From Octopus sinensis (taxonomy: Eukaryota): 64,000 nt of DNA. The stretch spans positions 7,192,001-7,256,000 of the forward strand of contig NC_043007.1 in the NCBI RefSeq assembly GCF_006345805.1, read 5' to 3'. Within the stretch, counting starts at the first letter, position 1; each line of letters begins with the position of its first letter. Below the pieces are notes generated by a model, which saw only the letters and a program-made list of their open reading frames with translations, searched no databases and had not been told where the DNA came from. Positions 3,021 to 56,411 of this stretch are shown piece by piece. A program made the position numbers and the translations under genes.

Positions 3021-3217
3021 ACACACACACACACACATAAATAGACGAACGCGTGGCTATGAGGTAAGAAGTTTGCTTCCCAAAGACATGGTTCTGGGTT
3101 CAATCCCACTGTATGAAACCTTGGACAAGTATCTTCTACTATAGCCTGGAGCCGACCAAAGCCTTCTGAGTGGATTTGGTTGACGGAACTTAAAGAAGCC
3201 CGTCGTGTATATACAAC

Positions 3218-3435
3218 TTATAAACAAGGGCAAAATAAAAATTATTTCCATGCTAATATGCTGATAACAGACTTATAAATCGTCAATTGACAATTTAAAG
3301 GTCTGTTATCAGCATATTGGCATGGAAATAATTTTCTTTTGCCCTTGTTTATAATTTTAACCTTTAAAGGTATTTTAATATGCTACCACTTTTGATGAAA
3401 TTATTTTCTGTAAAAGACTTCATCCTATATTAGTA

Positions 3436-3489: not shown

Positions 3490-3875
3490 ATGTGAAATAG
3501 AAAGATGAATAATCTTGTAGTAGATTAATCAAAAGTTTAACCGATACCTTAGTAGCAAAAATCACAGCAGTAAACAGCACGGTTGGAGGTACTACCATCT
3601 GGCGTTGCAACCGTGCGTTGGTGCGGATAATTGAAATTAAAACATTATTGGTGAATTGAAGAAATGGAGCTGAACGCAGATTGAACAGAAATCGTTTTAT
3701 TTCATTCTACACGTGTTTCGAAAGGCACAAATTACCAAAATCCGATTGAATAATGGGACCATATTGTGTCTTTCTCTTCAGGAAGAAAGAAGGAAATCCG
3801 TTGGAAAAACAAAAACAGAACAGAGGCGGAGCAAAAAACAAATCGAACTGTGCTCCTAAGAGCCCATGGCGTCAC

Positions 3876-3882
<7 letters not shown>
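3490..3882 (-). mobile_element. PLE pLTR remnant (family A)
   Basis: Closely matches 28865-29245 and the reverse complement of 55990-56365, the latter linked to a GIY-YIG fragment. Flanked by (TA)n on both sides. Confidence 0.85.
3698..3790 (-). ncRNA. Minimal type I hammerhead ribozyme motif (family A)
   Basis: Reverse complement: CUGAAGA, helix II GAAAGACACAA/UUGUGCCUUUC, GAAAC-ACGU-GUA, helix I. Confidence 0.75.
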
Positions 3883-16494: not shown

Positions 16495-16501
<7 letters not shown>

Positions 16502-16960
16502 AATTAGAGACAAAACCACTATTATGCAAATCAAACAAAGAAAGACTTAATCCAATACATAAATTAATTTATATAATTTAGAAATTTAACAATTATTAAT
16601 ATCCACTACGATCGTTTCATGTCTTCTTTTCATCACATCTTTGAGTAGTAGACATTCTTCAGGTGGTTTCAAATCTAAAATATAATCAATATTTTTAAGA
16701 TATAAATAATCTATATAATCTAAAAAAATAATTTACTGATAATAAACTCTATTATTAAATATGATTATATCGAAATCGACTATAATGTTAAATATTAACT
16801 TTAATTTATAAGGTAGAAAATCCATATTCTAATATCCATTTTAGTCTATATCTACTTATATGGTTTTGTCTCTAATTTATATAATATAATATTTTACTAT
16901 AAATTGGATTCAATCCTAAATCTGATTTTTCCCTGTAGGTTTGGATTTATTCCCTAATAT

Positions 16961-16970
<10 letters not shown>
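16495..16970 (-). mobile_element. PLE pLTR remnant (family B) with a short inverted arm and tail
   Basis: ATATAAATTAGAGACAAAACCA (16497-16518) is inverted at 16861-16882 and followed by a ~90-nt tail. It contains an HHR and is flanked by TA-rich repeats. Confidence 0.75.
16603..16666 (-). ncRNA. Minimal type I hammerhead ribozyme motif (family B)
   Basis: Reverse complement: CCAC-CUGAAGA-AUGUCU...AGACAU-GAAAC-GAUC-GUA-GUGG. All three helices and the core are intact, and loop III is palindromic. Confidence 0.85.
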
Positions 16971-28600: not shown

Positions 28601-29072
28601 AATGATCGAGTTAAAATGTAACCCAACTCACAAAGGTATCATATGTAATTATTAAACGCGAAGCAAAATTTTATGAGCGAAAGAAAGAGTTCACTCAGCT
28701 GAGGATAGAAATAACCTTTCAGAAAAGAAGTGGAAAATTCTGTTCACATCTAATGTTGAACTTTGATCTTTATTTTGATTGCAGGTAGTTAAATTACCAC
28801 TCAGGGATATAGGAAGTATATAGAGCTTTGACTGACTATTGTATAAATACGTGCATATATATATTATGTGAAATAGAAAGATGAATAATCTTGTTGCAGA
28901 TTAATCAAAAGTTTAATCGATACCTTGGTAGCAAAAATCACAGCAGAAGACAGCACGGTTGGAGGTACAACCATATGGTGTTGCAACCGTGCGTTGGTGC
29001 AGATAATTGAATTTTAATATTATTAATGAATTTAAGAAATGGAGTTGAACGAAGATTGAACAGAAATCGATT

Positions 29073-29165
29073 TATTTCATTCTAAACGTGTTTCGAAAGG
29101 CACAATTTACCAAATTCCGATTGAATAATGAGACCATATTGTGCCTTTCTCTTCAGGAAGAAATA
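29073..29165 (-). ncRNA. Hammerhead motif copy with disrupted helix III (GUA to UUA)
   Basis: The reverse complement reads GAAACACGUUUA instead of GAAACACGUGUA. Confidence 0.65.
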
Positions 29166-29282
29166 GGAAATCCGTTGGAAAAAACTAAAACAGAACAGAG
29201 GCGGAGCAAAACAAATCGAACTAGGCTCCTGAGAGCCCATGGCCAAACTCTGTTCTGTTTTTGTTTTTTCCAACGGATTTCC

Positions 29283-29375
29283 TATTTCTTCCTGAAGAGA
29301 AAGGCACAATATGGTCTCATTATTCAATCGGATTTTGGTAAATTGTGCCTTTCGAAACACGTGTAGAATGAAATA
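29283..29375 (+). ncRNA. Minimal type I hammerhead ribozyme motif (family A, best copy)
   Basis: TATTTCTTC-CTGAAGA(29292)-GAAAGGCACAAT...ATTGTGCCTTTC-GAAAC-ACGT-GTA(29365)-GAATGAAATA, with a perfect 12-bp helix II. Confidence 0.88.
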
Positions 29376-29436
29376 AAACGATTTCTGTTCAATCTTCGTT
29401 CAACTCCATTTCTTAAATTCACTAATAATATATATA

Positions 29437-36421: not shown

Positions 36422-36722
36422 GAAGTATATTTGCCATCTAAATGTGGCTAACCACTAAGGGTGTATGTTACTGTAGCATGTAGCCACAGGAGAACATCTC
36501 CAGTTGGCTATTCACACACATTCTGTGCCCTATCGGTATTTGCAAAGGGAAGCCACCAATAGGGCACAGACAGTGTGTCAATAGGCAGCTGGAGATGTTC
36601 TCCTGAGGCTGCACGCTACAGTAACATACACCCTTAGTGGTTAGCCACATTTAGATGGCAAATATACTTCGCATTGTCGTGCAGTTACTGCTTATACCTC
36701 GCACAGAGATTTATTATTGCTT
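36422..36722. repeat. Inverted repeat (~110-bp arms) plus a ~50-bp tail, between TA tracts; probable inverted PLE terminus
   Basis: 36422-36532 is the reverse complement of ~36558-36670. The outer ~55 bp are identical. Confidence 0.85.
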
Positions 36723-39617: not shown

Positions 39618-39930
39618 ATACGTATAAAAACAGATAAGTGCTCCAACAACGTACCAATATTTACTGGAGAATAGCAATTGATACAAATATGACGCTATCG
39701 TATAGTTTCACTGAGTATTTACCAGTAAAGACATGTCTGTGCAACAAACATCTTTGCTAGTAAATACGCAGTGAAACTATACAATAGCGTCGTATTTGTA
39801 TCGATTGCTATTTTCCAGCAAATATTGGTGCCTTGTCGTAACACTTATCTGTTTTTATATGTATAAATCTACCCTTATGGGGCTTTATTTTACTGGAAAC
39901 TAATACATTTGTATTACAATATTATTTCCA
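39618..39930. repeat. Diverged inverted repeat (~113-bp arms) plus a ~65-bp tail; probable inverted PLE terminus
   Basis: 39618-39731 versus ~39750-39864, about 14 mismatches by eye. The tail ends at TA repeats. Confidence 0.8.
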
Positions 39931-41474: not shown

Positions 41475-41693
41475 AGGGTCGCAAAGTTTTGGGTAGAAGG
41501 CCAGCAAATTCTGAAGGAAGGCGTAAGTTGATTACATTAAACCCACGATTCAACTGGTACTTATTTTAGCGTCGCTGATAGTATGAAAGGCGAAATCGAC
41601 CACAGCCAAATTTGAACTCTAAATATAAATCGGACAAAACGCCGCTAAACGTTTTTGTCCTGTGTACTAACGATTCTACCAACTCGCCGCCTT
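41475..41693 (-). mobile_element. Family-2 SINE
   Basis: Ends in AACGATTCTACCAACTCGCCGCCTT, the reverse complement of the head. Confidence 0.8.
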
Positions 41694-41791
41694 CGAAACT
41701 GAGCCGAGCTAACAGAATCGTTCAGGAGTGAAGAAAAACTACTTTGCAGTACTTTTCTTTACTTGTTTTCATTTACAATATTACTTGGATC

Positions 41792-42008
41792 AAAGGCGAC
41801 GAGCTGGCAGAAACGGTAGCACACCGGGCAAAATATCTAGCGGTATAGTTCGTCTATCTTTACCTTCTGAGTTCAAATTTCGCTAAAGTCGACTCTGCTT
41901 TTCATCCTTTCGGGGTCGATAAATTAAGTACCAGTTGCATACTGGGGTCGATCTCATTGACTGGCCCTCTCCCCCAAAATTTCGGGCCTTGTACTTAGTG
42001 TAGCAAAG
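41792..42008 (+). mobile_element. Family-2 SINE, well conserved
   Basis: Head, B box TTCTGAGTTCAAATT, and the TTTCATCCTTTCGGGGTCGATAAATTAAGTACCAG domain. Confidence 0.9.
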
Positions 42009-53082: not shown

Positions 53083-54841
53083 AATACATATATTAATCCT
53101 AATCTTGTATACCACATTCTTGATATTCCCTGTGGCTAATTTTTAAAATATTCTTACCATACAGACGGAAGCATTCGAAACAAGAAAAAAATATTTTGTA
53201 GCCAAACAATTGGTGTAATTAAATTTAAGATTTATTTTACATCTTTACAAATCACCTCACCCTAATCAGGCTAATCAAATTTGTCTATTATTTACCACGA
53301 CTTGAACTTAAAATATTTACACATTTAAGGGAATCTTGCAAAAGAAACGAAATTCAGGATAGCATATTTTCTAACATTTCCGTATGCTTCCAAACTACAA
53401 TAAATGTTGCCGACTTTCCGATGGCAACATATTCAACATTATTACGAATAGTTCAACATCAAACCTAATTAAGTTTGATTCATAGAAAAGTTTGAATAAA
53501 CCAGTTGGTCATATTTTGTCGTAATGCTAACACGGTGAAAAATACAAATAACTTCAAATGTTAATATTTTGAATTCTAAGAACAAAATTGCGTAGAACAT
53601 ATATAGAAATAATCACAGTCATTTGATTGTTGGTTAAATGTGTACATCGTGTACTAGCATGAGCTTTTGTAGCATTCAGCTATAATTGAGATACATGTGG
53701 CTCTGAAATCAAATATACACAATCTGTGAGCTAGGAAAAGAAATATACATATGATGCAAAAGTTATTTGATGAGGGTGGAGGCATAATGAAAGAAGTTGG
53801 ACTGTGGGAACACGATAATTCAACCCCTGCTGAGAGAAACCATAATGATTAGGAGGTCATGAGAAGAAATTCTCGTTGTAGACAATGCGAGTGAAAACAT
53901 ATCAAGCAAGCCGATATATAATGTCATTGGACACTAGGGGACGTTCTGCCTTCTTTATATTTTATCAGTTACAGACTCTGTGTCCGTCGACCATTGCCCA
54001 TTAAGAACTGTTCCAATATGTAAATAGTAAATAATAAATTAACAAGCTTGCTCACCTGTGCAAAACATTGTCACTCTGAAATCATCTCGTTCAATGATTA
54101 CATTGTTTTTAAAATTTCAAACTGTTATTCTTCTTTAGATCCTGCTCAGTTCCATATGTAGAACTATGGTCAGAGATGCTTTAGCTTTGTATATTCCATC
54201 ATTTATTCTGATTCAATGTATTTATAGCAGCATTTTCCAATATCTTCATTTTTTTTTTTTCGAAAATAATCTGGATATTATTTGAGGAAGATTTGATTGC
54301 TGTTAATTCTAACGACACAGAGGTCCGCTTGTTTGCTCGCCAAATTGATTTTGCTGACGTTGCTCTTAATCACGGCCGAGGCAGTGAACCATTCATTCTT
54401 ATTCCTCTTATATATAAAAGTCGGAAGACACGTCGGAAAGTATCGCATATTATTGGTTTATATTCGACAATGCACAAGGTATCTCTATTTTAAACACATC
54501 TATATTAAGCGAAAGTGGAAACAGGAAATTATAGCACTGATACCTTCTTTCCCCATGAGCATCAATTTCGGAGGTTATAAAATGCCCACTTAATCATCAT
54601 CTTATGTATTCATTCGACGTCTTTGAGCTTTCCTTAATTTATCCGAGTATAAGAGCAGCAAGACTTATGATCATTGACAATTACAATTACATGCCTAATC
54701 CTAACATATTTAATCTGACACATATCCGCGCCACTACACAAAAATGTATACACTAATACGCAAACATATATATACATATATATTTTTTTTTTTAGTGAAT
54801 TGAAGAAATGGAGCTGAACGAAGATTGAACAGAAATCGTTT

Positions 54842-54934
54842 TATTTCATTCTACACGTGTTTCGAAAGGCACAATTTACCAAATTCCGATTGAATAATGA
54901 GACCATATTGTGTCTTTCTCTTCAGGAAGAAATA
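54842..54934 (-). ncRNA. Type I hammerhead motif, in sense with the GIY-YIG frame
   Basis: Same architecture as 29283-29375, with the core intact. Confidence 0.82.
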
Positions 54935-55147
54935 GGAAATCCGTTGGAAAAAACAAAAACAGAACAGAGGCGGAGCAAAACAAATCGAACTAGGCTCCTA
55001 AGAGCCCATGGCCAAACTGTTTATCAGTGTATGCTGAAAACGGGTGGTGGGTGCGTTGAAGATTTTAACGGGTCAGGCAGCGGTCATTTCGGTGGGTGAG
55101 GGCACGGGGTGTGTAGATGTTCTTTGTGACCGAGAGTAAAGTTCTGA

Positions 55148-55363
55148 CTATTTAAAGAATATTAGATGTATTATATGGGGCGAGTTCGTATCCTTCAGTC
55201 GCCATATTAGCTTGCTAAGTCCCGTGGTCTGGCGTTTATTCATGTCTCGAAAAGTTGCGTAATGGTTGGAGATTCGTAAAGCCAATCTTGACAATGAGGC
55301 CCCTACATAAGCGTAGACATCTGAGTCCGTGTAAACCTTGCATTGGTAGACGGCGTTTCTGAT
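55148..55363 (-). pseudogene. GIY-YIG endonuclease domain of a PLE (absent from the ORF track)
   Basis: Manual translation: IRNAVYQCKVYTDSDVYAYVGASLSRLALRISNHYATFRDMNKRQTTGLSKLIWRLKDTNSPHIIHLIFFK*. It has AVY..YVG, R..NH..F and LSKLIW.LKD motifs. The upstream frame is broken by a 3x 11-bp CTGATCTTATT expansion. Confidence 0.85.
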
Positions 55364-55581
55364 CTTATTCTGATCTTATTCTGATCTTATTCTGCTAGGA
55401 TTAGTTTCTGAAATTGGAACTGCGTTACTGTCACTATATGAAAATAGCCCTTGGTAATAAATTCTGAAAAAGCCTTTAAGAGAAATATGATTAACCATTG
55501 CAAGGGGAATTACTCCTGTGAGATGAATGGGGTTTTGTTTTTGACGACGGGGGGTTTCTTTGACAAGGCATGATTAGACGA

Positions 55582-55780
55582 ACACACGCACACATAAAAT
55601 ATTTTTCTGCCGCCCGACGGATCTTACAGCAGTGACCATTGTGTAGAGCTGTTTACCAACTGACAGCCGCGCGATCAAACGCACACACGTACACATAAAA
55701 TGTTTTCTACCCCTTGACGGATCTCTCGGCAGTGACCAGAATGTAGCGCTTCTTGCCAACTTGCGCCCGTACACATACAT
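55582..55780. repeat. Diverged ~102-bp tandem dimer inside the PLE
   Basis: ACACG(C/T)ACACATAAAAT..TTTTCT..GACGGATCT..GCAGTGACCA..TGTAG.GCT..T.CCAACT occurs twice. Confidence 0.75.
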
Positions 55781-56068
55781 AGAACAGTAAACACACACAT
55801 ATCTCTAAGTAGTTTTGGCTCGCCCCATATAATACATCTAATATTCTTTAAATAGTCAGAACTTTACTCTCGGTCACAAAGAACATCTACACACCCCGTG
55901 CCCTCACCCACCGAAATGACCGCTGCCTGACCCGTTAAAATCTTCAACGCACCCACCACCCGTTTTCAGCATACACTGATAAACAGTTTGGCCATGGGCT
56001 CTTAGGAGCCTAGTTCGATTTGTTTTGCTCCGCCTCTGTTCTGTTTTTGTTTTTTCCAACGGATTTCC

Positions 56069-56161
56069 TATTTCTTCCTGAAGAGAAAGACACAATATGG
56101 TCTCATTATTCAATCGGAATTTGGTAAATTGTGCATTTCGAAACACGTGTAGAATGAAATA
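56069..56161 (+). ncRNA. Type I hammerhead motif in the inverted pLTR
   Basis: CTGAAGA at 56078 and GAAAC-ACGT-GTA at 56140-56151. Helix II has two mismatches. Confidence 0.78.
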
Positions 56162-56362
56162 AAACGATTTCTGTTCAATCTTCGTTCAGCTCCATTTCTT
56201 CAATTCACTAAAAATATTAAAATTCAATTATCCGCACCAACGCACGGTTGCAACACCATATGGTTGTACCTCCAACCGTGCTGTCTTCTGCTGTGTTTTT
56301 TGCTACCAAGGTATCGGTTAAACTTTTGATTAATCTGCAACAAGATTATTCATCTTCTATTT

Positions 56363-56411
<49 letters not shown>

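Follow-up and report, generated by a model that had tools for sequence, protein, structure and literature searches.

Inverted, truncated copies with a tail of 30–40 bp, often at one end only, have been described for PLEs (PMC8557442), and inverted pLTRs with a tail that is optional on one copy are known from Penelope of Adineta vaga and Drosophila virilis, where the head-to-head structure is ascribed to self-priming on an antisense template (PMC3846280). The origin of the inverted pLTRs and the one-end tail was posed as an open question (PMC8557442) and has been partly answered in vitro with the anole Poseidon element PAc, whose protein is predicted to form a dimer; both strands were cut and extended, with two internal RT start sites matching the tail ends (PMC11167929). 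These start sites were the same on both strands, without a strand difference, so that no coupling was seen in vitro, and the text of that paper, in the parts available, does not discuss inverted arms, although its Fig. S2 maps genomic ends (PMC11167929). This is the lizard PLE with internal initiation to which an earlier note on the present DNA had referred. Twin priming of L1 is described as occasional, with a variable second site and arms that barely overlap (PMC11702581).

The DNA analyzed here is a window of 64,000 nucleotides from Octopus sinensis, in which three loci represent separate insertions, into (TA)n, of a PLE with RT, a C-terminal GIY-YIG and a hammerhead motif. Inverted arms and a tail on one side belong to the established anatomy of PLEs, and that of the present element is known in outline; the one-sided arrangement matches the published one, whereas the tail is 150–160 nt here compared with 30–40. 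In what follows, S is the short end, an internal end zone, and L is the long end, to which the tail extends. The literature on PLEs that was found held neither a count of S/L pairing nor an application of twin priming, either of which older subscription papers may contain, and in their available parts a 2026 retrozyme preprint, an octopus repeat annotation and a circular RNA review do not describe this family.

Three insertions in the window and the element behind them

Locus 3 (54789..56366) is a head-to-head insertion of subfamily A in (TA)n, with its S end on the left and its L end on the right. The short-end arm (54792..55439, minus strand) consists of a GIY-YIG endonuclease fragment (55185..55439, minus strand; VYQCKV...YVG...R...H...LSKLIWRLK), an internal deletion, the 3′ UTR and the pLTR as far as S. 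The long-end arm (55435..56366, plus strand) carries the 3′ UTR, the pLTR and the tail to the L end, and overlaps the short-end arm by 5 nt (55435–55439). Over 396 bp the inverted arms (54789–55184 and 55819–56214) differ by a single mismatch. The right arm extends to CTATTTCACA (56357–56366), 157 nt beyond the TCAC anchor; the left arm ends earlier by these 157 nt, with TCAC at 54795 followed by an A run. The earlier note had read the short arm as being in sense with GIY-YIG; the two do adjoin, but solely because an internal deletion with 4-nt microhomology (55184/55185) has brought them together. An intron at this position was ruled out, as the microhomology is present and GT-AG is absent. 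Within the GIY-YIG fragment a ~12-nt tandem repeat (3 copies, 55349–55398) adds a stop in this copy.

Locus 2 is formed by a long-end arm (28867..29249, minus strand), which starts exactly at the transcription start inferred below and is preceded by a G that is also common to the partner arm, and a short-end arm (29248..29431, plus strand, ending at ~29431) with a hammerhead at 29292–29365. Locus 1 has a long-end arm (3491..3871, minus strand, hammerhead 3781–3708) and an 11-nt short-end mini-arm, TCACCAATAAT (3872..3882, plus strand), mirroring 3644–3654. This 11-mer occurs in the window at just these two places, against a baseline of 21 among 64,000 window positions for S-zone 11-mers of any kind, element copies included. 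Locus 1 is of subfamily B, and the other two loci are of subfamily A (91–94% alike). Both arms run sense-outward and usually overlap, and the long arm is more than a bare tail. All three loci, including the arms and the mini-arm, were thus found at the positions given earlier, and because their six flanks (~550–600 nt each) gave no cross-locus BLAST match they are not one segmental duplication but independent insertions, the latter being what the note had held. Self-BLAST of the window also returned several palindromic, MITE-like repeats (3215–3357, 36422–36670, 39618–39864 and 41493–41994).

The copy number is in the thousands, with 3309 exact matches in the 2.72-Gb genome to a 25-nt pattern lying just upstream of the short end. 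A natural copy, L086, was found to have a stop-free frame of 703 aa with RT and EN (GIY-YIG) in a single ORF, and this C-terminal GIY-YIG and the inverted pLTRs bear out the PLE identity that had been proposed. Homologs have 33–42% identity, the sole named one being an Octopus protein (P0046); a Pfam search with the ORF pieces gave nothing significant, and a PDB search with the EN region gave no match. The pLTRs also occur in partial tandems with a unit of 3.65 kb (70 read-through junctions genome-wide), alongside the inverted arms. In the tandem copies the order is S, the tail, which forms the 5′ UTR, L, and the ATG of the ORF ~45 nt after L, while in PAc the tail is 30–40 nt and lies inside the ORF (PMC11167929). 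One such tandem, L146/L147 (G000:C1:193555286–193561949), has at least 2 read-through junctions 3.63 kb apart and is a possible multimer or rolling product.

The ORF carries the Hydra-type marks DKT (SDKT) for DKG, RIRWL and YRDD. In RIRWL the RW of the RWK-type motif is kept and the K is absent. The EN is C-terminal without CCHH, having CxxC and CxH beside the conserved E and N, and a TA run follows 54/54 L ends and 52/55 S ends. RT followed by GIY-YIG, DKT, RW, YRDD, no CCHH, CxxC and CxH around E/N, a hammerhead and a (TA)n target are likewise found in the Hydra clade, including Hydra-1_Obim, where alignment rows were compared by eye (PMC8557442). The element therefore appears to be a Hydra-type one, a new family of a known PLE class, as judged from motif rows compared by eye. 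Assignment to Naiad or Chlamys, with an N-terminal EN and no canonical hammerhead, was ruled out by the C-terminal EN and the hammerhead. The unit of 3.65 kb differs from the generally <3 kb published for the Hydra clade (PMC8557442), as do the long Ser/Asn-rich linker and a CxCX5C motif that is down to one Cys; the hammerhead differs from that of Hydra-1_Obim, which is a different family, and has a ~45-nt insert in stem II.

The CxCX5C linker motif has been lost, reading C-[SRW]-S-R-N-[EK]-Y in 13/13 motif rows from 9 loci, and is present in homologs P0002, P0003, P0006 and P0013. The long Ser/Asn-rich RT–EN linker without these cysteines (L086:5900–6700; window 55340–55439, minus strand) goes along with targeting that is still strictly (TA)n, which argues against CxCX5C being needed for TA targeting. 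An Asn-rich RT–EN insert, and an initiator-like motif in the pLTR, are shared with Penelope of A. vaga and D. virilis, which differs in its 31-bp tail and few copies, no counts being given in the available text (PMC3846280). Hydra-like RT fragments of other families lie next to (TA)n tracts at L035:7919–8830 and L265:633–896. A different PLE-like element with long open frames, an RT with YLDD and a GIY-YIG with cysteines (L047:2695–6386, minus strand) adjoins a copy of the present family.

The hammerhead has a long stem II and a 2-bp stem III around a palindromic loop, and lies ~55 nt upstream of S; hammerheads with a palindromic minimal stem III are of a type already described (PMC4209133). 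In locus 3 its core is at 56078..56151 (plus strand) in the long-end arm, with predicted cleavage after 56151 and a stem II mismatch in this copy, and intact at 54852..54925 (minus strand) in the short-end arm. The motif, as noted earlier, is present, in 4/5 window arms that are long enough to hold it; the fifth, the left arm of locus 2, has a core substitution. A constrained fold gave −13.5 against −15.8 kcal/mol for the free one, with the core and stems I–III in place and cleavage as a prediction. Free folding of the ribozyme region formed no hammerhead (z 0.29), and an Rfam scan left it undetected and returned TA-repeat noise only. Downstream, S lies at 56204..56219 (plus strand), where it is read through in the long arm of locus 3, followed by the tail (56209..56366, plus strand) with a hairpin of 9-bp outer stem (56242..56281, plus strand). 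The common end point that had been put ~155 nt from the end fits the tail of 150–160 nt, but S is a zone ~14 nt wide and not a single base.

Pairing of S and L ends

The first 100 of the 3309 pattern matches in chromosome order were mapped on one natural copy and form 63 insertions, from whose ends the RT start sites discussed here were read. All 100 arms end at S, end at L or, in 3 cases, continue through L into the next ORF. There were 47 S+L insertions, 2 S+S, no L+L, 12 with one arm by BLAST and 2 with another or unseen end. S and L were thus paired in 47/49 two-armed insertions, where 50% would be expected if the ends were independent (p=2e-12). At this frequency the end points bear out what the earlier note had described, a short arm that ends sharply inside the element and faces an inverted arm with the tail. 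Some of the 12/63 one-armed copies hide mini-arms of 3–8 nt, with none visible in others. Among 40 tail-selected loci of subfamily A, a partner was visible in 27; it ended at S in 24 of them, 11 nt beyond the S zone in 2 and at L in 1, so that the exceptions to S+L coupling amount to 2/49 S+S in the pattern sample and 1/27 L+L in subfamily A. Genome-wide, the forward strand has similar numbers of S|TA (1102) and L|TA (1256) junctions; reverse-strand figures, inflated by repeated matches, were set aside.

The window holds an unrelated hammerhead-bearing family with the same architecture (16501..16965), with TA flanks, a hammerhead at 16662–16607 on the minus strand and a tail of ~85 nt on the inverted arm. 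This family has 1824 pattern matches, and S+L was found in 28/28 inverted pairs, these being all pairs with the pattern in both arms within the first 100 matches. Its two ends also resemble each other by eye. No protein was matched by tblastn inside the arms of 50 loci, the lone RT match being in a neighbouring element. Near-strict coupling of one S with one L therefore holds in two families. For an S+L structure that is inherited whole, by duplication at the DNA level or as a palindrome already formed before it was copied, or that is an assembly artefact, there speak a few duplicated loci (L028/L029 and L226/L234). This is extremely improbable as a general explanation, given that 44 inner junctions are all different, the flanks are unrelated and the rule holds in two subfamilies and the second family.

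The choice of the sites themselves had been attributed in the earlier note to microhomology between AT-rich RNA and the TA target, with only the tail copied onto the opposite strand. Both S and L are AT-rich, the overlap with the TA run is 1–3 nt in 43/55 S ends and 3 nt in 36/54 L ends, and tail-only L arms do occur, in 10/44 S+L insertions. Against this, there is no overlap in 12/55 S and 18/54 L ends, perfect TA runs of 13 nt and 7 nt in the 3′ UTR end no arm across the 63 insertions, and the L arm continues past S in 34/44. Since the overlap is 0–3 nt and internal TA runs are unused, the site is probably not chosen by TA homology, and this version is highly unlikely. In the anole system, too, the initiation site is not homologous to the cut DNA (PMC11167929). 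The motif TTCAC-N0-2-ATAAT has 2 occurrences in the 3650-nt unit, at S and at L (0.018 per shuffle, the motif having been noticed post hoc). It could also be that L ends come from donors in which L|(TA)n was the end beforehand, and are not internally primed.

The two arms were compared in 44 simple S+L insertions, whose inner junctions have mostly 1–9 nt of overlap. In 17/44 the upstream reach of the S arm exceeds that of the L arm by >15 nt, and all 10 insertions with tail-only L arms are among these 17. Of these 10 tail-only arms, 6 begin at reference 3558–3563, the 3′ foot of the tail hairpin, which is the pattern expected from RT stalling. The 5′ points are nested or equal in 27/44 and shared within 15 nt in 13/44, with 6 exact compared with 0.34 by permutation. 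Across 35 insertions, two arms diverge by 0.4% when they come from the same insertion and by 1.4% when they do not, which points to one source, although gene conversion in inverted repeats can also make the arms of an insertion similar.

These data bear directly on a scheme in which priming occurs at L alone and is followed by cDNA snap-back, DNA-templated return synthesis and cutting of the hairpin at S by the endonuclease. Self-priming with EN-mediated resolution has been proposed for PLEs (PMC3846280; PMC8557442), and such a scheme accounts for S and L, for near-identical arms and for exactly shared 5′ points; the nested or equal ones fit it as well. However, under this scheme the L arm would have to contain the whole S arm, which does not hold in the 17/44, and the 10 tail-only L arms among them share no sequence with the S arm. 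In these insertions neither arm is therefore a copy of the other, which rules out simple snap-back for more than one third of events and makes it quite improbable as the general route, though it could apply to a subset. The excess of shared 5′ points fits either two rounds of copying from one broken RNA or snap-back for some of the insertions. The two arms are likely to be separate cDNAs, and the twin-priming-like origin suggested earlier gains support from both the S+L pairing and the longer S arms.

Start and nature of the RNA template

Arm starts fall in an 11-nt zone of the pLTR in 15/88 cases. The A of CAGTTT at the center of this zone, at 55985 (plus strand) in locus 3 and mirrored at 55018 on the minus strand, is the inferred capped transcription start. 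Genome-wide, 177 arms start at this A with a non-reference base before it, which is G in 123, compared with an extra G at other starts in 18/76; 1559 copies read through the site. Inspection of 30 extra-G cases found true junctions in 30/30. The extra G is not from the partner arm in 8/20 and equals the partner's next base in 10/20. In L1 an extra G is the mark of a copied cap (PMC11702581), and by analogy the extra G here is likely a copied cap and a capped start is likely to lie inside the pLTR. Arm stops were not enriched at the ribozyme cut, and uncleaved sense RNA likely serves as a template.

When an arm stops at the inferred start, its partner is further upstream in 0/26 (4 of which overlap the first sample); for the zone in the first sample, 1/15 arms has a partner that reaches further. 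This observation is relevant to dual priming on two RNAs from one source locus, held by the dimer, in place of one RNA used twice. Two RNAs would suit the L arms that pass S in 34/44, which on a single RNA need strand displacement, and the one insertion in which an arm from the start site is joined to a partner of much greater length. Strand displacement by PLE RTs is possible, and these RTs are not known to have RNase H. Mixed-subfamily arms were found in 0/35 insertions, partners stay below the start site in 26/26 and exact stops are shared at non-hotspot positions, all of which weigh against two RNAs and make this arrangement unlikely.

Arms that read through from the ORF behave differently, as 0/70 genome-wide stop at the inferred cap site, 29 pass beyond it and there is no pile-up at the ribozyme cut; the corresponding figure for first-pass arms stopping in the start zone is 15/41 (p=0.001, or p=0.11 against the exact-base rate). 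An ORF-bearing RNA that starts at the same cap site is thus unsupported. The lack of both kinds of stop argues for a long template without a fixed 5′ end within reach, presumably a read-through multimer or a ribozyme-made circle. Contigs of 4 RNA runs contained no joints, and such contigs cannot give RNA starts or ends. In one run, whose type is a guess, differences in the pLTR were mostly A>G and T>C (30/42), which could represent A-to-I editing of inverted arms.

A model of integration and its significance

The pairing of one S arm with one L arm probably arises because both nicked target strands prime RT at two fixed internal sites of the sense RNA. In this model a capped transcript would begin in the pLTR (window 55985) and span the ribozyme, S, the tail and L. 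The protein, probably dimeric like that predicted for PAc, would nick the symmetric (TA)n target on both strands, after which one of the 3′ ends would prime at L and its counterpart at S. An RNA signal may set these sites, both having TTCAC-N0-2-ATAAT, with the 0–3 nt of pairing merely fine-tuning them. Both cDNAs would then run upstream, that from L usually beyond S, and short microhomology would join their ends into the head-to-head junction. One-armed copies would result where the second cDNA is a few bases long or absent.

A more elaborate form is obligate asymmetric twin priming, in which a dimer acts on one RNA with one subunit per tail boundary, the ORF template is a hammerhead-made circle and capped linear transcripts of the pLTR give rise to the short arms. 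For the circle, the stops of the ORF read-through arms described above offer indirect support. The whole is a tentative and somewhat doubtful proposal; if true, the inverted pLTRs, the one-sided tail and the partial tandems would be explained in one scheme.

The model of two fixed priming sites is close to what is described for PAc, in which two sites bound the tail, the target is AT-rich, a hammerhead lies upstream and uncleaved RNA serves as the template (PMC11167929). It is also similar to L1 twin priming, with priming by both target ends, joining by microhomology and an extra G at full-length 5′ ends (PMC11702581). Unlike in L1, two-armed insertions are the rule here, neither site varies and the overlap of the arms is hundreds of bases long.

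In this octopus (TA)n targeting persists without the linker cysteines that have previously been associated with such targeting. As the family is young, numbers thousands of copies and has a long tail, steps of its integration can be read from the genome. The tail length, the near-strict S/L coupling of two families, the cap mark and the finding that more than one third of events did not arise by snap-back are added to the known anatomy and make for a testable mechanism, from which sharp predictions follow for the existing in vitro PLE assay.
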